Both the position numbers and the translations under genes were made by a program. A stretch of DNA of 16,115 nucleotides from an uncultured Planctomycetota bacterium (GTDB lineage Bacteria > Planctomycetota > J058 > JACQDU01). The notes beneath the pieces are model-generated. The model was given only the letters and a program-made list of their open reading frames with translations, was not told the DNA's origin and did no database searches. The stretch covers positions 1 to 16,115 of the forward strand of contig CAZYLP010000081.1 in the NCBI GenBank assembly GCA_964648345.1, given 5' to 3'. Shown here piece by piece: positions 3,167-11,940 of the stretch (position 1 is its first letter; every line of letters starts with the position of its first letter).

Positions 3167-5218
3167 GTGGTCGAGCGAGACAGGGACACACGCGAGCGGG
3201 ACATCCTCGTCGCGGGCAACGAGTACGCGTACGTCCAGGACCTCACGAAGGGCGACATCGTCCTCTACGTCGGTCCGACGAAGATCAGCCTCTCGAACAC
3301 GGAGCGGCTCGTCGTCCTGCAAGGAGGGCGCTTCGTCCCGGTGCGCAGCGAGGACGGCGGCGCGACGGGTGTGTCCGCGTTCGTCGCGGCGACGAGCTCG
3401 CAGTACATCGTCCTCGAGAACCCGCCCAAGGATCCGGCATCGCGTCCCGTGAAGGGGAGCAACTCGGCGGTCGAGCTCCTCACCGGCAAGAAGGTCGTCG
3501 TGCCCGGCCCGGCGACGTTCCCTCTCTGGCCGGGCCAGCGCGCGAGCGTCGTCGACGGGCACGAGCTCCGCGAGAACCAGTTCCTCTGGCTCCGCGTCTA
3601 CGACAAGATCGAAGGCGACCCGAGCCCGATCGGGACCGGCAAGATCGTCCGCGGCTCCGAGGTGAGCTTCTACATCCCGAAGACCGGCCTCGAGGTCGTC
3701 CCGGACCGGACGGGCTACGTCCGCAACGCCGTGACGCTCCGGCGCAACACGGGCCTCCACGTCCGCGCCGTCAGGGAGTTCACGGCGGGCCCCGACGACG
3801 ACGTGCCGGCGGGCAGCTACGCCGCGGGGCAGGGGATCTTCATCAAGGACCGCGAGGGCTTCTTCTTCCCGACCGGCGACCTCGAGGTCGTCGGCGAGGT
3901 CCGCACGATCCCGCTCAGCGACAAGGAAGGGATCTACGTCCGCGACATCGAGACCGGGCGGATCTTCACGGAGATCGGCCCCAAGAACTACCTCCCCGAT
4001 CCGACGCGCGTCGAGGTCGTCACGCGCACGCTCGACCCCGAGACCGCGAAGCTCTACGGGGTCGCCAACCACGAGAGGGGCAAGGCGGTGTCGGTCTACA
4101 TCCCGCCGAGCTTCGCCGTGCTGGTGACCGCGAAGAACAAGCGCGAGGTCGTGCGCGGCCCGCAGACGCGGATCCTCGCGTTCGACGAGGACCTCGAGGT
4201 CCTCAAGCTCTCGACCGGCAAGCCGAAGACGGACGAGACGCTCCTCTCGACGTGCTTCCTCCAGACCGACGGCAACAAGGTCTCGGACATCGTGCGCGTG
4301 AAGACGCGCGACCACGTCGAGCTGAACGTCACGCTCTCCTACCGCGTGTCCTTCATGCCTCGTGAAGGGCACCAGGGCGACGAGCGCTGGTTCAACGTCA
4401 AGAACTACGTCGCGCTCCTCTGCGATCACCTCGCTTCGATCGTGCGCGGAGCGGTCCGCGCGCACTCGATCGAGCAGTTCCACGCGCGGAGCACCGAGGC
4501 GATCAGGAACGCCATCCTCGGCGAGAAGCACGGCGACGAGCCGCGCCTCGGCCGGCGCTTCGAGGAGAACGGCCTCACGGTCTACGACGTCGAGGTCCTC
4601 GACGTGAAGATCCTCGACGCGGAGGTCGAGAAGCTCCTCTCCGACGCGCAGAAGGCCGGCATCGCCGCCGACGTGACGCGGCGTCAGGAGGAGCTCCGCC
4701 TCGGCGGCGAGAAGCTCAGGGAGCAGGTGACGGCGCAGATCTACGAGGCGCAGATCGTCACCCTCGCGCGGGCCGTCGAGCTCGAGAACGCGAAGTGGCG
4801 CGTCTCCGAGGCGAAGGCCCAGGCCGGCGTCGAGCTCGACAAGCTCGACCGTCTCGGCCGCGCGCAGAACGAGGCCGAGGCGCTCGAGATCTCGAGCGCC
4901 GCGAGGGCCGCGGCGTCCGGCCGCGAGAACGAGGTCGAGGGCAAGGCGCTCCAGGCTCGCGTCGCCGCGTTCCGCGAGCAGATGGGCGCCCTCGCGCCCG
5001 AGCTCGTCACGACGATCATGGTGCTCGGCGAAAAGCAGCTCGCCGGGGAGCTCACGAAGAACCTCTCGCCGCTCGCTATCCTCGGGGGAACGTGCGTGGG
5101 CGTGGTCGGGGAGCGGCTCCTCGGCGCCCTCCCGCTCGGAGTGACGGGGCCCGACGGCGCGGCCAAGGCCGTCTCGACGGCCGAGGCCCGGGCGAGCAAG
5201 GCGAACGGGAGGCGCTGA
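3167..5218 (+). CDS. Major vault protein (MVP) homologue, 683 aa: MVP repeat domains, shoulder (SPFH-like) domain and cap-helix coiled coil
   Basis: Alignment by eye to human MVP across the whole length. N-terminus: [21 protein letters not shown]...ERLV vs [22 protein letters not shown]...ERVL. Repeat 2: FPLWPGQ vs FPLYPGE. Shoulder: [28 protein letters not shown] vs [46 protein letters not shown]...[23 protein letters not shown] vs LSAGRPKRPHARRALCLL...[37 protein letters not shown] vs HKNSARIIRTAVFG. Cap-helix: [42 protein letters not shown]... Ala/Glu/Leu-rich coiled coil. GTG start with upstream ACAGGGG. Confidence 0.85.
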   Translation: [683 protein letters not shown]

Positions 5219-5791: not shown

Positions 5792-5845
5792 GCAAATTGT
5801 CGGTGGCATAGGTTAGGTTTGTTCCGCGTGAGGCGAAGGCGACCG

Positions 5846-6187
5846 ATGCCAGACGTGTGGGCGACTCAGTTTCTCGGAACTGTCTACGAAGACCTGTCGG
5901 GGAGGCTCATGGCCCAACGACAGTCCATCCCGAAGAACAGTCCGCCGACCCACCACGGCGGCGATCGTCTGTTCCGTCGCTTGGACTGCGCGGTGATCAA
6001 CTGGGCGGCGAAGGCGGGTCACTCCGGCGGTCGAGACCTCGCGTTCGACACCGTGCGGGGCGTGTTCGAGGAAGGGCTCCCGGCATCTCCTGGCGCGGCG
6101 GTCCGGCAGAAGTCGCATGTCCAGATCGCGATCAGGAGTCCCGCCTGCATCCTTGGGATCTTCCGGCCCACCGGCTACTCTCTTTAG
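5846..6187 (+). CDS. Hypothetical protein (about 113 aa) in a lower-GC segment
   Basis: Frame-2 ORF with a protein-like composition (MPDVWATQFLGTVYEDLSGRLMAQRQSIPK...). ATG at 5846 preceded by GAGGCGAAGG. The track ORF begins at a TTG at 5819. Third-position GC is lower than in the surrounding genes. No homology recognised. Confidence 0.35.
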   Translation: MPDVWATQFLGTVYEDLSGRLMAQRQSIPKNSPPTHHGGDRLFRRLDCAVINWAAKAGHSGGRDLAFDTVRGVFEEGLPASPGAAVRQKSHVQIAIRSPACILGIFRPTGYSL

Positions 6188-6198
6188 ACGAGGACCTC

Positions 6199-6417
6199 GT
6201 GCGAATCATCGACCCCTACCGCAAGGAGAACGCTCGGCTCCTGAAGTGGCTCGCGCAGCTCTCCGAGGAAGATGGCGTGAGACTCTTGAAGGAGTGCGGC
6301 ATCCTCGACGCGCGCGGAAACCTCGCGCGGAAGTACAGGACGCCGAAGGACGAGGTACAGAAACCGGCAAAGCCCAAGTCGCCGAAGACCCCCCGACGTA
6401 AACGAGCGGCTTCATAG
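6199..6417 (+). CDS. Small basic hypothetical protein (about 72 aa), C-terminus Lys/Pro/Arg-rich (KPAKPKSPKTPRRKRAAS)
   Basis: Frame-1 ORF whose protein-like part starts near LDEDLVRIIDPYRKENARLLKWLAQLSEEDGVRLLKECGILDARGNLARKYR. GTG at 6199 preceded by GAGGA 4 nt upstream. The frame-1 sequence further upstream (5857-6180) looks like an Arg-rich wrong-frame product. Alternatively this is the 3' part of a gene frameshifted relative to 5846-6187. Confidence 0.3.
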   Translation: MRIIDPYRKENARLLKWLAQLSEEDGVRLLKECGILDARGNLARKYRTPKDEVQKPAKPKSPKTPRRKRAAS

Positions 6418-6430
6418 CTCGACCGGCTGC

Positions 6431-7102
6431 GTGGGGATTTCCTACGAGCACTGGTTCGTCGTGCGCGACCTCGACTGGCGCCCGGCCAAGAAACACGGAG
6501 AGGCGATCCATCGCCTCCTCGTCGATTGGGGCCTCGTCCGCGAGAAGCCGAAGCTGTTCGCGGTTGACGAGGGGCACGAGAGAGAAGTGCAAGGCGCCGC
6601 TGTCGTGCGGGACGGCGCCATCCCTGACGAACTCTGGATGCGCTACAGCCCCATGGTCGAAGGCGAGGCCGCCGAACGGGTCGTGGGACCGCTCGAGGAG
6701 GAGAGCGTCCCGGAGGCAAGGCCGTTCATCTGGGCCATCACCGTCGTCCTCGGTCGCGACTACAAGATCATCGACGCTCCGGACTTCGGACCGGTCTCCA
6801 CATCTCTCGTGGGAGGGCGGAGACCGACGCACGCGGTCGGCGCGATCGACGCCGTCGCCGCGACGTGGGATCAGCCGCCGCCTCCCACCGAGGTCGCATT
6901 CTCCGATCCCATGACGGGTGATCCCCGCGAAGTGCCCGACGGGTTCGTCGGGCTCATGAGGTCGGGAGTCATCTTCGACTGCGACAGGGCTCGCCCCGAG
7001 TTCCCACGGAGTTCCGATTCCCGGCTTCCGAACCGCGAGTTCGTCCGAGCGCTCGAGGGTGCCCTCGAGACCGGGGTTATCGAGATCGGCCGGTACGTCT
7101 GA
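6431..7102 (+). CDS. Hypothetical protein (223 aa)
   Basis: Plus-strand codon usage is typical of the host (ttc, gac, gag, ctc, atc, high GC3), whereas the antisense ORF 6206-6832 is Arg/Pro-rich. GTG start at 6431. No recognisable motif (MGISYEHWFVVRDLDWRPAKKHGEAIHRLLVDWGLV...). Confidence 0.55.
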   Translation: MGISYEHWFVVRDLDWRPAKKHGEAIHRLLVDWGLVREKPKLFAVDEGHEREVQGAAVVRDGAIPDELWMRYSPMVEGEAAERVVGPLEEESVPEARPFIWAITVVLGRDYKIIDAPDFGPVSTSLVGGRRPTHAVGAIDAVAATWDQPPPPTEVAFSDPMTGDPREVPDGFVGLMRSGVIFDCDRARPEFPRSSDSRLPNREFVRALEGALETGVIEIGRYV

Positions 7103-7112
7103 CGACGACGCG

Positions 7113-7547
7113 CTACTCGATCTCTTCGAAGCGGTGAGTGCCGGCGAGTATCGCGTGCACTACGGGCGCCCACGCGACCTCGACCCACTCGAGGTCGTTG
7201 AACGGAGGCACCCGCTCGTTCGACCACTTCGCCTGACCCAGGAAGTACTTCATGGACGGGGCTGCCAGGTGATTGCTCGTGTGAACGATCACGGGGCAAG
7301 TCGGAGTCCGACCGGTCAGGAAGAGAACGACATCGGTTCCTGACCCGGGATCGTCGCCTTTCTCCTTGGCGACGAGGTCGTGATCGAGGGAGATGAGAAC
7401 ACACTCGCCGAGGTGTTCCTCGAGCCACGCGATCATGTCGTGCGCTCGGGGGAAGACGTGGACGCTCAGCGCTCCTTCTTGCGCGAGCTGTCGGAGCATT
7501 GCATCGCGACGTCCTTCGTCGTCCTCCAGGATCGCGATCGCGCGCAC
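7113..7547 (-). CDS. Stand-alone receiver (REC, CheY-like) domain protein, 144 aa
   Basis: Receiver hallmarks in order: acidic pair after beta1 (RAIAILEDDEGRRD), phospho-acceptor-like Asp at the end of beta3 (CVLISLDHDL), conserved Thr/Ser (VIVHTSNH) and Lys (SMKYFLGQAKW). GTG start at 7547 is chosen to include the DD pair; an ATG at 7500 would truncate it. The rest of track ORF 7113-8393 is antisense to the methyltransferase gene and is rejected. Confidence 0.55.
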   Translation of the reverse strand: MRAIAILEDDEGRRDAMLRQLAQEGALSVHVFPRAHDMIAWLEEHLGECVLISLDHDLVAKEKGDDPGSGTDVVLFLTGRTPTCPVIVHTSNHLAAPSMKYFLGQAKWSNERVPPFNDLEWVEVAWAPVVHAILAGTHRFEEIE

Positions 7548-7646
7548 ATCGCACGTTAGCTGCGTACCCCGATGTGCGACCAGGTGGTACCACGACACGG
7601 CCCGGCTGTGATACGGTCGCGCCGAACGCTCGCAGGGGGAGAGACC

Positions 7647-8459
7647 ATGAATCCGAACAAGGCGCTTTGGGAGAAGGGCGACTTCACCGAGATCGCCTCT
7701 TTCATGCGGCAGTCGGGCGAAGCCGTCGGCAACTCGCTCGGAGTCACGAACACGATGCGCGTCCTCGACCTCGGCTGCGGCGACGGCACGACCGCGGTCC
7801 CGATCGCGAGGCTCGGTGCGGAGGTCGTCGGGATCGACATCGCCCGGAACCTCGTCGAGGCCGGCAACAAGCGCGCCGCCGCGTTCGGGCTCGGCCGCCT
7901 CAGGTTCCAGGAGGGCGACGCCTGCAAGCTCGAGGGCGTGCCGGACCGCTCGTTCGACCTCACGCTCTCCGTGTTCGGGGCCATGTTCGCGCCCAGGCCG
8001 TTCGACGTGGCGAAGGAGATGGTCCGCGTCACGAAGCCGGGCGGCCGGATCGTCATGGGCAACTGGATCCCTGGAGACCCGACCTTCGTCGCGCAGCTTC
8101 TGAAGATCAGCTCGGCGTTCACGCCGCCGCCGCCCGAAGGGTTCGTGAGCCCTATGACGTGGGGCGTGGACACGAACATCTACGAGCGCTTCGGGGCTGC
8201 CGGCGTGCCCCAGCAGAAGATCACGCTCGCGCGGGAGACGTTCACCTTCATCTCCCCCGACAAGAGCCCGGAGCAGGTCGTCGAGTCGTTCCGCAAGTTC
8301 TACGGGCCGACGATGAACGCCTACGAGGCCGTCGAGAAGAACGGGAAGACGGACGAGCTCCACGCGCAGGTCGTCGATCTCGCGAGGTCGCACAACAAGG
8401 CGACGGGCGGCGGAACGTCGATCCCGGCGACGTTCCTGCGAGTCACGGTCTCGGTGTGA
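7647..8459 (+). CDS. Class I SAM-dependent methyltransferase (Methyltransf_11/25-like), 270 aa
   Basis: Motif I VLDLGCGDGTTAVPIARLGAEVVGIDIA, acidic post-I residue, and motif II/III region RLRFQEGDA...DLTLSVFGAMF...KPGGRIVMGNW. Strong RBS GGGGGAGAG 5 nt before the ATG at 7647. The track start at 7572 adds 25 improbable residues. Confidence 0.8.
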   Translation: MNPNKALWEKGDFTEIASFMRQSGEAVGNSLGVTNTMRVLDLGCGDGTTAVPIARLGAEVVGIDIARNLVEAGNKRAAAFGLGRLRFQEGDACKLEGVPDRSFDLTLSVFGAMFAPRPFDVAKEMVRVTKPGGRIVMGNWIPGDPTFVAQLLKISSAFTPPPPEGFVSPMTWGVDTNIYERFGAAGVPQQKITLARETFTFISPDKSPEQVVESFRKFYGPTMNAYEAVEKNGKTDELHAQVVDLARSHNKATGGGTSIPATFLRVTVSV

Positions 8460-8847
8460 CGCCCGGCCAGACCCGCCGCCCGTGCACGAAGACGGCGGCG
8501 ACGGTCTCGGGCTCGAAGGTCATGTGGAACCCTCGCTCGGGCGAGAGGAACTCCTCGGGCAAGAGGTCCTGCACGCGCCGGAACGAGAGGAGGTCGTCCT
8601 CGATCCCGACGAACTTCATACCCCCGAAGCCGACGCGCGCGGAGCCTCCCTCGTCGTCGCAGAAGACGACCTGATCCGTCGGGACGGGCACGCCGCGGCC
8701 ACCCGGGAAGTGGACGAAGGTCCCCGGCGGACCGTTCTGGACGATCGGGAGGCTCTTCGCGACGAGCTTGCCGCGCGTGATCCGGCTACCCTCGAGGAAC
8801 TCGACGAGCACGGGGATCTTCAAGACATCGACGGGATCAGAGTTCAT
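8443..8847 (-). CDS. Hypothetical protein (about 134 aa)
   Basis: ORF with protein-like composition (MNSDPVDVLKIPVLVEFLEGSRITRGKLVAKSLPIVQNGPPGTFVHFPGG...). ATG at 8847 is preferred over the track start at 8982, which lies inside the AT-rich palindromic intergenic region. The 3' end overlaps the convergent methyltransferase gene by 17 nt. No family recognised; weak PilZ-like impression only. Confidence 0.4.
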   Translation of the reverse strand: MNSDPVDVLKIPVLVEFLEGSRITRGKLVAKSLPIVQNGPPGTFVHFPGGRGVPVPTDQVVFCDDEGGSARVGFGGMKFVGIEDDLLSFRRVQDLLPEEFLSPERGFHMTFEPETVAAVFVHGRRVWPGVTPRP

Positions 8848-9077
8848 GGCCAACGAGACGGCAAGCCTAGCAGGTCTCGCGATGCTCTGACGACATGACG
8901 ACGGCTCGTCGACCCGCGGGCGGAACGGGATCAGCGCCGTAAACTTAAGATTACATTGCAATGCATTGCCTATGTATGACATAGGCCATTTTAGACGAGC
9001 ATCTTTACACCAGGATCGCCGTTTGATCCCGCCGGGATCGTCCGTGACCCGGACTCGGAAAGGAAGGCTGACGCCTC
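8848..9077. promoter_or_regulatory. AT-rich (about 45-50% GC against about 70% background) divergent promoter region containing three palindromes
   Basis: Perfect palindromes read directly from the sequence: CATTGCAATG (8954-8963, with overlapping ATGCAT and a flanking CATTGC direct repeat), GCCTATGT-atg-ACATAGGC (8968-8986), and GATCCCG-c-CGGGATC (9025-9039). An AGGAAGG RBS lies before the ATG at 9078. Confidence 0.45.
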
Positions 9078-9641
9078 ATGGACCTCTCTCTGTACGGACA
9101 GCCGGACGACGGCCCCTTCGACGGCCCGCTCGCGGCCAACTGCGCCGTGATCGGGTTGATCGTGATGATGCTCGTCGGCCTGGGCTTCGTCTCCTACCCG
9201 GTCGGGCTCACGCTCGCGTTCATCTTCCTGTGGGCGTTCATCGCCGGACTCATCGTCGGCGCCGTCGCCTACCTCCTCCTGCGGCGACTCCGTCAGGCCG
9301 ACAGGTCGCGGCAGCCCTCGAGCAGGATCTTCGACCCCTCGCTTCGCGCCGGCCTCGTGGCCGCGGCGACGAGCGTCGCGGCGCTCGGCATCGTCGATCC
9401 GTCTCTCGTGGCGCGCTCGACCCCGTACGCAGCCGCGCGCGAGGGAGGTCGCGCCTTCAGCGTCTCGATCCGTTCACCGCGCGCGAAGACCACGACTCCC
9501 GCCATCGCGGGAGAGGACGTCGAGCGAGCCGTCCGCGAAGCGACCGCGGCAGGCAGCACGCCGCCGGCCGAGCCTCCGCGCCCTCACCGCGAGGCCGCGG
9601 AGCCGACCTCGACCGGGTTCCTGGGCGCGCTGGGGCGCTGA
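9078..9641 (+). CDS. Small membrane protein (two predicted TM helices) with a low-complexity tail ending TSTGFLGALGR
   Basis: Hydrophobic stretches AVIGLIVMMLVGLGFVSYPVGLTLAFIFLWAFIAGLIVGAVAYLLL followed by a basic RRLRQADR. ATG at 9078 with upstream AGGAAGG. The stop at 9639-9641 is 3 nt before the next gene's GTG, implying translational coupling. Confidence 0.55.
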   Translation: MDLSLYGQPDDGPFDGPLAANCAVIGLIVMMLVGLGFVSYPVGLTLAFIFLWAFIAGLIVGAVAYLLLRRLRQADRSRQPSSRIFDPSLRAGLVAAATSVAALGIVDPSLVARSTPYAAAREGGRAFSVSIRSPRAKTTTPAIAGEDVERAVREATAAGSTPPAEPPRPHREAAEPTSTGFLGALGR

Positions 9642-9644
9642 GCC

Positions 9645-10862
9645 GTGGGACCGCTCGAATCGATCGGCGAGTGGATCTCGGAGAACAGGAACGCGATCGT
9701 CGCGACCACCGCGGGCCTCGTCGTCGGCACCGGGGTCACGATCGCCCTCCTCGCGACGGCTCCCGTGAGCATGCCCGCGCTCCTCGCCGTCGGAGGAGCG
9801 GTCGCGGCGGGCGCTTTCATCGGGACGGCGTTCACGTACGTCGCGCTGAGCGCGTTCGACGGCGCCGACCTCCAGGACCGGAGCATCGTCCTCAGGGCGA
9901 CGGCTCACGCGACGGTGGCCGCGGGTCTGAGCTTCCTGACCGTCGGCGCGCTCGGCCCCGCCGGCGGAGTGGCGACGGGCCCCGCCGGCGTCGCGCTCGG
10001 CGAGTCCTCGCTCGCGACGATCGCCGCCCAGGCGCCCACGCGGTTCGTCGTGGGCGCCGGCGCGGCGGGCGCGCAGCAGCTCGCGTCGAACCTGATCGAG
10101 GGCCGGCCCTCCGAGGAAGGGATGCCGACGGCACTCCTCCTCGGCGGGACGCTGACCACCGTCGCCACGACCGCGGGAGACCTCCACCAGGGCGTCTTCG
10201 CCCCTGACCCCATCGCAGACGCTCGGCCCGTGCTCCGCCACTCGTCGTCTCTCGAGCAGGACCTCGCTTACTACCGCGCCCAGGGTTGGAGGATCCGCTA
10301 CGGCGAGCCAGGACGCGGCACGTTCATGACCGACCCCGCGCCCGGCGTGCCAGGAGAGATCGTGATCGACCCACTGCGGCGTCCCTCTCCGACCTCGCTC
10401 ACGAACGGGCTCGCACACGAGGTCGGCCATGCGAACGCCGGCGCCCCTCCGACGTACGGTCCGAGCGCCACGATCGCGACGCGAGAGGAGTTCGCACGGA
10501 TCAACGTGCTCCAGCAGCTCGACGGCGAGGGGATCGCCGTCCTCAACGAGGCGACCGTGCGGAGCGAGATCCTCGCGGCCGGGGGACCCGACATCGGTGG
10601 GAGTCCTGCGATCCCGAGGTACGCCGACATCCTGAACGATCCCTCGATCGGCGCGTGGGAGCAGGCCCGGCGGTTGGGCAACAACTACAGGTACGAGACG
10701 CCGAGCACCAACCCAGCCGTCAACTACGGCCGCTACTGGAGCGCCTACTACGAGGACTGGTGGGACAGGGTCATGGGCTCGGGTCCGCTCACGGTCACCA
10801 AGGGGACGGCGACGACCGCGCCGGCGACGTCTCCCGGGATCCTCGGCGCGATCGGACGCTGA
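9645..10862 (+). CDS. Membrane-anchored protein with Gly/Ala-rich hydrophobic N-terminal region and a C-terminal HExxH...E (gluzincin-like) putative metallopeptidase domain; ends TSPGILGAIGR
   Basis: N-terminal about 180 aa of glycine-zipper-like hydrophobic helices (GLVVGTGVTIALLATAP..., LLAVGGAVAAGAFIGTAFTYVALSAF...). Motif NGLAHEVGHANAG followed about 20 residues later by REEFAR, the HExxH + E zincin arrangement. Aromatic-rich C-terminal segment NYGRYWSAYYEDWWDRV. Plus-strand codon usage is good. The antisense ORFs 9474-11198 and 9584-9886 are rejected. Confidence 0.6.
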   Translation: MGPLESIGEWISENRNAIVATTAGLVVGTGVTIALLATAPVSMPALLAVGGAVAAGAFIGTAFTYVALSAFDGADLQDRSIVLRATAHATVAAGLSFLTVGALGPAGGVATGPAGVALGESSLATIAAQAPTRFVVGAGAAGAQQLASNLIEGRPSEEGMPTALLLGGTLTTVATTAGDLHQGVFAPDPIADARPVLRHSSSLEQDLAYYRAQGWRIRYGEPGRGTFMTDPAPGVPGEIVIDPLRRPSPTSLTNGLAHEVGHANAGAPPTYGPSATIATREEFARINVLQQLDGEGIAVLNEATVRSEILAAGGPDIGGSPAIPRYADILNDPSIGAWEQARRLGNNYRYETPSTNPAVNYGRYWSAYYEDWWDRVMGSGPLTVTKGTATTAPATSPGILGAIGR

Positions 10863-10879: not shown

Positions 10880-11818
10880 TCAGCGGAACTTCGTCGCCCA
10901 GCCGAGACCGCCCGCCTCGCCCGCCGCGTTCATCGTCCTGAGCTCGTCCCAGTCCTTCGCGACCACGGCGTAGTCCGGGTAGGGCCCGGGCTCCTGCGTG
11001 TGGAAGATGTAGGACTTCATGCCGTTGTCCTTGTAGACCTCGGCATCCGAGGTCCTGTTCCCGAAGCCGTAGAGGAGCTTCGGGAACGACGGCCTCAGGG
11101 ACTTGAGCACGCGGTTTCTCTGGTCGTAGTTGTTGGCCTTGTCGCCCTCGGCGCGGAGGAGCGCCGGCCCGCGCGGGAACTTCCAGTGCGCGAGCCACGC
11201 CTTCGACTTCTGCGTGTAGGTCCAGTCGCGGCCCGTGATGTAGACGACCGTGCAGTCCTTCGCGATGTCGCTGAGCCCTCTGGGCGCGCCGGGGACCGGC
11301 GGCAGCTGCTCGATCGGACGGGCGACGACCTCGGCCCAGTGGAGCGCGGAGATCGTCATGTCGATGTCCGTCACGAGCATCCGGCGCTTGGGGTCGCGGA
11401 CGGCGACGAGCGCGTACGAGTCCGATGCCACGTACGTGATGCCGGAGTCGTCGTTGTCGAGCGCTCCGATGAAGCTCCCGCCGCCCGCGAGCCGGCCGGT
11501 CACGAGGAGGTCGCCCGGCGTGGAGGGCACCTTGACCGAGAGCTCGGCGTAGCCCTTCGCGTTCGACTCGGCGGTCCCGAGGACGGCTCCGTTCGCGCGG
11601 AACTGGACCTTCACGCCCTTCAAGTCGTAGGGCGTCGCGCTGTCGCGCCGCACCTTGAACTTGACCTTCGCGGTCTGCGTCCCGCTCGGGACGAGGACGT
11701 CGAAGCCGGTGAGGAGGGCCGCCTTCTTGATGGGGTCGGCCTGCGCACTGCCCGTGAGAGATGCGACGAAGCCCCCGCAGAGCAGTGAGGCGACGATGGC
11801 ACCCTGCCTCGATCTCAT
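10880..11818 (-). CDS. Secreted App1-like (DUF2183/LNS2) HAD-superfamily phosphatase, 312 aa
   Basis: Signal peptide MRSRQGAIVASLLCGGFVASLTGSAQA. HAD motif I VTDIDMTIS (DxDxT), conserved Lys region KANNYDQRNRVLKSLRPSFP, and motif IV-like YGFGNRTSDAEVY (App1 has GDSGQ.D). N-terminal beta-sandwich-like segment. ATG at 11818 with upstream GGGTGA. The track ORF extends to 12115 through an Arg/Gly-rich improbable N-terminus. Confidence 0.65.
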   Translation of the reverse strand: MRSRQGAIVASLLCGGFVASLTGSAQADPIKKAALLTGFDVLVPSGTQTAKVKFKVRRDSATPYDLKGVKVQFRANGAVLGTAESNAKGYAELSVKVPSTPGDLLVTGRLAGGGSFIGALDNDDSGITYVASDSYALVAVRDPKRRMLVTDIDMTISALHWAEVVARPIEQLPPVPGAPRGLSDIAKDCTVVYITGRDWTYTQKSKAWLAHWKFPRGPALLRAEGDKANNYDQRNRVLKSLRPSFPKLLYGFGNRTSDAEVYKDNGMKSYIFHTQEPGPYPDYAVVAKDWDELRTMNAAGEAGGLGWATKFR

Positions 11819-11940
11819 GAAATCACCCGTGATGAGTAGGCCGTGTGCACGAGTCGTGCCTCGTCCCAACTCGCGAAGGGCCGAGCGATAGCGTCTCGCG
11901 GGTGCGACGCATTCCGGGGAGCTGGAGCCGGAGGTGCTAC

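Follow-up and report, generated by a model that had tools for sequence, protein, structure and literature searches.

A divergent AT-rich region with clustered palindromes as a putative control region for a zincin operon in an uncultured high-GC bacterium

The window analysed here is an entire contig of 16,115 bp, with a GC content of 70.4% that agrees with the background of about 70% given in a first-pass annotation. At 8848-9077 lies an intergenic region from which a gene for a small conserved protein departs leftward and a pair of genes, the second encoding a zincin domain, departs rightward. The features of this part of the window are as follows.

7572 to 8459, plus strand: SAM methyltransferase gene (GC3).
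8443 to 8847, minus strand: left flanking gene, a 134-aa conserved hypothetical all-beta protein (GC3 0.90).
8831 to 8840, plus strand: direct repeat ACGGGATCAG, copy 1, within codons 3-6 of the 134-aa gene.
8848 to 9077: divergent intergenic region, 230 bp, 57.4% GC.
8925 to 8934, plus strand: direct repeat ACGGGATCAG, copy 2.
8938 to 9012: AT-rich core, 37.3% GC, lower than in any other 75-bp window of the contig, holding palindromes 1 and 2.
Within the core, plus strand: TANNNT hexamers TAAACT, TAAGAT and TACATT, to the left (upstream) of palindrome 1.
Within the core, minus strand: TANNNT hexamers TAAAAT, TAATCT and TAAGTT, with TAAAAT to the right of palindromes 1 and 2.
8954 to 8963: palindrome 1, CATTGCAATG.
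8958 to 8969: 12-bp perfect palindrome GCAATGCATTGC, overlapping CATTGCAATG and abutting palindrome 2 with two bases in common.
8968 to 8986: palindrome 2, GCCTATGT-ATG-ACATAGGC (arms 8 bp, spacer 3 bp).
9025 to 9039: palindrome 3, GATCCCG-C-CGGGATC (pattern form TGATCCCG-N-CGGGATC), its end 38 nt before the ATG at 9078.
9058 to 9068, plus strand: Shine-Dalgarno-like GGAAAGGAAGG, 9 nt before the ATG at 9078 (read from the sequence).
9078 to 9641, plus strand: first operon gene, 187 aa (GC3 0.89).
9645 to 10862, plus strand: second operon gene, 405 aa (GC3 0.90).
10880 to 11818, minus strand: LNS2/HAD-like gene (GC3).

The divergent layout described earlier is borne out by GC3 and homolog alignment, which agree on a minus-strand gene running from 8847 to 8443 and a plus-strand gene running from 9078 to 9641. 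The start of the left gene at ATG 8847 is backed by alignment with 14 homologs, with similarity from IPVLVEF onward. Because this start fits the homologs and a Shine-Dalgarno-like site precedes the ATG at 9078, 8848-9077 is taken as a true divergent intergenic region. A longer left gene starting from ATG 8982, within which palindromes 1 and 2 would be coding, was rejected: no homolog begins before the 8847 start, and the extension also lowers GC3 from 0.90 to 0.84. At its far end the 134-aa gene overlaps the plus-strand methyltransferase gene tail to tail by 17 bp (8443-8459), and there is therefore no terminator between the two.

The base composition of the region is uneven. It had been described as 230 bp at 45-50% GC; the region as a whole proves richer, at 57.4%, but a core of about 75 bp does stand at 37-39% (37.3% for 8938-9012, 38.7% for 8936-9010). 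This core is the sole AT-rich patch of the contig, the next-lowest 75-bp window elsewhere having 54.7% GC as against 37.3% at 8938.

The 134-aa protein is a member of a large, uncharacterised family (447 word-search matches) for which there is no Pfam or NCBIfam model and no structural neighbour. It carries the motifs NGPPGT, VPxPTDQ, ARVGFGGM and LSPERG, and the invariant elements in the family are NGPPGT, PTDQ, GFGGM and LSPERG. The family (the window gene and loci L001-L003 and L055-L138) is strongly conserved and widespread in soil and freshwater metagenomes. Its genes usually close small operons, behind varied partners that include a 322-aa conserved ORF (no NCBIfam match; DUF169-like by eye), a SagB-type dehydrogenase, a small ORF that is BolA-like by eye and a molybdopterin oxidoreductase. 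The upstream DNA at 89 loci of the family is unrelated to the region studied here; L001-L003 and L135-L138 are cases of this. The 148 bp upstream of a divergently arranged relative with 71% identity (L136/L137) contain a perfect palindrome of another sequence, GAGTGCGCC-T-GGCGCACTC (L136 4931-4949; L137 1206-1224).

On the right, the genes for the 187-aa and 405-aa proteins are separated by 3 nt and, on this spacing, form an operon; the upstream 187-aa hydrophobic protein is the sole operon partner of the 405-aa gene. The 187-aa protein has a hydrophobic N-terminal part, which as read from the translation is probably two membrane helices, and a disordered tail ending in TSTGFLGALGR; it has no homolog and no family in the searched collections. 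The 405-aa protein combines a hydrophobic, Gly/Ala-rich N-terminal half with a C-terminal zincin domain (HEVGH followed by a downstream Glu) and the tail TSPGILGAIGR.

The C-terminal 185 or so residues of the 405-aa protein are matched by 366 proteins in a HMMER search. Elsewhere the domain stands at the C-terminus of VgrG, RHS-repeat, PAAR-like, eCIS-core (one case) and WXG100-like proteins, and these relatives invariably have HExxH and, 32 residues after its second His, a Glu. DUF6782, a Pfam family of putative metallopeptidases, is found in 16 of 47 domain relatives, and Pfam makes no DUF6782 call on the 405-aa protein itself; one profile has a weak match to the small neutral zinc protease of Streptomyces (E 0.011). 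Since the domain recurs behind diverse N-terminal delivery domains, the suggestion that the operon encodes toxin-like cargo is supported, and so is a reading of the 405-aa protein, from these alignments, as a polymorphic-toxin-type zincin domain placed on a new hydrophobic N-terminal carrier. No close relatives of the 405-aa protein were found. Its only full-length homolog is distant (P0183, 30% identity), and the upstream region of that homolog is GC-rich, unrelated to the window and free of any palindrome cluster.

In comparison with the DUF6782-related polymorphic zincin toxins, the likeness lies in the alignable C-terminal 185 or so residues and in the invariant HExxH and downstream Glu. 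Unlike them, the 405-aa protein has a hydrophobic Gly/Ala-rich N-terminal half in place of a recognised delivery domain, its partner gene lies upstream and not downstream, no secretion system genes are found in the contig, and the Pfam call is lacking.

The 187-aa and 405-aa proteins end alike, in TS(T/P)G(F/I)LGA(L/I)GR followed by the stop codon (9609-9641 and 10830-10862). This tail occurs in none of the other 150 domain relatives; the tail of P0183 is SSGGFVGSLR (L004 6276-6308). Possibly the shared tail is a signal at the C-terminus for sorting or processing, linked to the hydrophobic N-terminal carrier. The locus of the full-length homolog, L004, shares sequencing run ERR1346839 with L137.

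Elsewhere in the contig, a 683-aa protein (3167-5218, plus strand) has, unusually for a bacterial MAG, vault repeat domains together with the shoulder domain of the major vault protein (E 1e-32). The stretch 5792-7600 has lower GC (60-66%) and a weak coding signal. It includes an ORF at 5857-6417, of which the C-terminal 78 aa look real and end in the basic tail KPAKPKSPKTPRRKRAAS without any family assignment, a 223-aa orphan at 6431-7102 and a stand-alone cREC_REC receiver domain gene at 7113-7496 (minus strand). Pfam recognises no transcription-factor gene among the ORFs of the 16-kb contig, and no tRNA or tmRNA gene was found in it.

A MAG labelled Planctomycetota, GCA_041287755.1, holds a cluster mate of the vault-like protein that is more than 90% identical, and also the closest homolog of the 134-aa gene (L001, 89% nucleotide identity in the gene). 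At that locus a GYD-domain gene is followed, after 45 bp, by the 130-aa gene and then by an LNS2-like gene. In the window the gene order differs: the AT-rich region and the two orphan genes of the toxin operon separate the 134-aa gene from the LNS2-like gene, and similarity between the two loci is lost no more than about 30 nt from the start codon. Among the nearest JGI relatives of the 134-aa gene the upstream gene abuts it, and other relatives stand in quite different contexts. No orthologous intergenic region was found in the searched collections. Because the upstream DNA and gene contexts of the relatives differ, the control region is, on these comparisons, lineage-specific.

Within the region, the three palindromes reported by the first-pass annotation were each verified at their positions (8954-8963, 8968-8986 and 9025-9039), and the distance of about 40 nt given from the third to the ATG at 9078 is confirmed at 38 nt. 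Two further elements had not been described, namely the fourth perfect palindrome, GCAATGCATTGC, and the exact direct repeat ACGGGATCAG. The overlapping set at 8954-8969 is an alternation of CATTGC, GCAATG and CATTGC. The half-sites of the three palindromes are mutually unrelated, and CGGGATCA is both the core of the direct repeat and a half-site of palindrome 3. Several of these words are locally concentrated: CGGGATCA occurs three times here against twice across the remaining 15.9 kb, and CATTGC three times at 8954-8969 against three times in the rest of the contig. The enrichment of CATTGC, CGGGATC and CGGGATCA has nominal P values of 1e-5 to 6e-5 for words picked post hoc. GATC, in contrast, shows nothing of the kind, and a Dam-type methylation cluster was rejected, with 146 GATC in the contig and the 4 in the 230 bp close to expectation. 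A dif/Xer site was likewise rejected, there being no resemblance in sequence.

The palindrome load was assessed with 5000 dinucleotide-preserving shuffles of the 230-bp region. At least three palindromes with arms of at least 6 were obtained with P = 0.0004, at least two with arms of at least 7 with P = 0.0016, and both together with P = 0.0002. Since palindromes are more frequent throughout the contig than in shuffled sequence, real 230-bp windows of the contig are a fairer yardstick, and 2.3% of them reach an equal load. Roughly 35 different palindromes in the 16-kb contig have arms of at least 7, and GC-rich ones with 7-bp arms are common; palindrome 3 alone therefore means little and could be due to chance. 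Outside this region, the only intergenic palindrome of the contig with arms of at least 6 lies in 11819-11940. The AT-rich core together with its two or three palindromes exceeds chance and is a real feature.

No sigma-70-like promoter was found in the region by scan or relaxed scan, with a consensus that may not be that of this lineage, and an ECF-type GGAAC...CGT spacing, read by eye, does not fit. All candidate -10 elements of the TANNNT type in the region, as read from the sequence, lie inside the AT-rich core.

The search for relatives of palindrome 2 used the pattern GCCTATGTNNNACATAGGC against one genome per species (185,579 species, 596 Gb) and returned 45 loci, which looks no larger than the roughly 140 expected by chance under a rough, uniform-composition estimate. 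In 12 of the 45, all of them high-GC Actinomycetota (Thermoleophilia/Solirubrobacterales and unclassified Actinomycetes MAGs; loci L011, L012, L023, L025, L029, L038, L039, L042, L045, L051, L052 and L053), the site has the invariant form TGCCTATGTGATACATAGGC and lies 2-5 nt before the start of a gene for a 128-aa protein with MerR-HTH and TOBE domains, followed by modA/B/C-like genes. The other 33 loci are unrelated, many of them being terminator-like hairpins in low-GC genomes. The TOBE part of the 128-aa regulator matches the solved molybdate-binding domains of Mop, ModG and ModE. TGCCTATGTGATACATAGGC itself stays constant although its flanking sequence differs between loci and ModA identity drops to 33%. 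The site therefore reads as an operator footprint and is apparently, on this pattern of conservation, the operator of a molybdate regulator class; literature searches on MerR/TOBE regulators found no description of their operator.

Palindrome 2 agrees with the Actinomycetota site at 16 of 16 specified positions, with half-sites GCCTATGT and ACATAGGC and an equal 3-nt spacing. It differs in its spacer, ATG in the window as against GAT, and in one outer flank base. It also lies about 100-130 bp from the neighbouring starts instead of 2-5 nt, under another phylum label and without any genes for molybdate transport in its neighbourhood. Palindrome 2 and the ModE motif RTTATGT-N8-RCATAAY (PMC12327845) have the half-site core TATGT/ACATA in common, and the ModE box can be regarded as a functional analogue. 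Within the 16-kb contig each of the palindromes is single-copy.

The interpretation favoured here, with slightly better than even confidence, is that 8848-9077 is an ordinary type of divergent promoter/operator region, specific to this lineage, that controls the zincin operon and the 134-aa gene. In its favour are the divergent genes, an AT-rich stretch that has no equal in the contig, more palindromes than expected by chance, their scarcity in other intergenic regions and the local enrichment of half-sites. Against it stand the failure of the scans to find a sigma-70-type promoter, of Pfam to find a regulator gene in the 16 kb and of the collection searches to find an orthologous region, together with the single copy of each palindrome in the contig, the unrelated upstream DNA of P0183 and of the 89 family loci, and a palindrome 3 that is within chance. 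Both flanking units would start in the 75-bp AT-rich core, the 134-aa gene leftward and the membrane-protein/zincin operon rightward, from promoter positions that we infer. Within this core, GCAATGCATTGC with the overlapping CATTGCAATG, and GCCTATGT-N3-ACATAGGC, would be operators for dimeric helix-turn-helix regulators. Palindrome 2 is the strongest operator candidate of the region, as judged from its sequence, and the invariance of TGCCTATGTGATACATAGGC at 12 loci with varying flanks indicates that such a sequence can serve as an operator. The -10-like hexamers on opposite strands appear to face each other across palindromes 1 and 2, so that one bound protein or dimer could block both directions. 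Tight, multi-input repression, as first suggested, is plausible, with a number of inputs that we infer; tight control would be expected for a gene of the polymorphic-toxin-type metallopeptidase class.

The same region could instead be a scar. The AT-rich patch may be a promoter-bearing or junction remnant of a rearrangement that introduced an orphan toxin module and parted the 134-aa gene from the gene usually found upstream of it, with palindromes that are incidental and unbound. The differing gene order at L001, the loss of similarity so close to the start codon, the abutting upstream gene in the closest JGI relatives, the 2.3% of contig windows that are equally palindrome-rich and the single copy of each palindrome in the contig are all consistent with this. 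Three to four perfect palindromes in or beside the AT-rich core are, against it, unlikely by composition (P 0.0002-0.002); moreover, the module is not bounded by terminal inverted or direct repeats and no phage or plasmid similarity was found, for which reasons a mobile-element end or attachment site was rejected, and the GC3 of the operon genes (0.89 and 0.90) equals that of the host and argues against recent foreign DNA. A junction remnant is considered unlikely. It is very unlikely that the palindromes work as RNA hairpins in a long 5' leader, with palindrome 2 and the following CAUUUUA acting as a weak attenuator and palindrome 3 stabilising the transcript or modulating translation. Since the plus-strand TANNNT hexamers are all upstream of palindrome 1, a transcript from there would span all three palindromes; minimum-free-energy folds of the leader retain hairpins at palindromes 2 and 3 (-10.4 and -8.6 kcal/mol, respectively), and in low-GC genomes the GCCTATGT/ACATAGGC stem sits between A- and T-runs in a terminator-like manner. 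These folds, however, are no better than those of shuffles (z -0.75 and -1.74), a terminator scan does not call palindrome 2, which only 4 T follow, and no Rfam covariance model matches at E<=1 anywhere in the contig. The 7-bp-stem leader hairpin previously suggested for palindrome 3 has a 1-nt loop and cannot form; a stem of 6 bp with a 3-nt loop is realistic.

A more specific alternative assigns palindrome 2 to the molybdate regulators. It would then be a molybdate-box for a MerR-HTH and TOBE (Mop) molybdate/tungstate sensor encoded elsewhere in the genome, and the 134-aa gene, perhaps with the toxin operon, would be molybdate-dependent. The invariant TGCCTATGTGATACATAGGC at the 12 MerR/TOBE-modABC loci, with the same half-sites and spacing, the match of the regulator's TOBE part to molybdate-binding domains and the TATGT/ACATA core also present in the ModE motif (PMC12327845) speak for it. 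So does the position of the gene directly downstream of a molybdopterin oxidoreductase in L002 and L055, which are among the closest relatives of the 134-aa gene; in L002 the homolog start overlaps the oxidoreductase stop by 4 nt. Yet a molybdoenzyme neighbour is seen in only 2 of 87 loci of 134-aa relatives (2/83 and 0/4), and no palindrome resembling palindrome 2 (<=3 mismatches) occurs at the 83 scanned loci of the family. The 45 matches do not appear to exceed the rough chance estimate, and they include none from Planctomycetota, to which the >90%-identical relative MAG is assigned by its label. In the window, 101 and 130 bp separate the palindrome from the two start codons, in place of a position at the start codon; no mod, Mop or TOBE gene is found in the 16 kb, and a perfect 16/16 match across phyla is atypical of diverged regulons. 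A molybdate-box of this kind is quite unlikely, and we think it decidedly improbable that palindrome 2 is a genuine molybdate-box of a MerR-HTH/TOBE regulator outside Actinomycetota through which a Mo/W signal controls both the 134-aa family and the zincin operon.

The divergent promoter/operator region preferred here has parallels in well-known systems. In Tn10, tetR and tetA are transcribed from divergent overlapping promoters with palindromic operators, and one bound protein shuts both directions. In the window, similarly, two genes leave a short shared region, the palindromes lie in its AT-rich centre between opposed -10-like hexamers, and one of the products, if controlled as proposed, would be harmful when over-expressed. 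Unlike the Tn10 arrangement, the region has no flanking gene for a TetR-family or other regulator, its three palindromes have unrelated half-sites, and its -10 hexamers are candidates only. LexA-repressed colicin operons carry tandem operators, and they resemble the window in that a toxin operon lies behind closely spaced or overlapping palindromes, which here are only predicted operators. By reading, no palindrome of the region resembles the LexA box types known to us, and LexA boxes were rejected on this basis.

As an ordinary-looking control region, the locus is of modest general importance. If the palindromes are operators, the region would act as a compact switch governing a toxin-like zincin of an uncultured bacterium with high GC. 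That palindrome 2 matches the MerR/TOBE site exactly in its half-sites and spacing is one concrete, testable lead, offered as a hypothesis and not as a result. If true, it would define the operator of an uncharacterised molybdate regulator class and provide a first functional handle on the 134-aa family.
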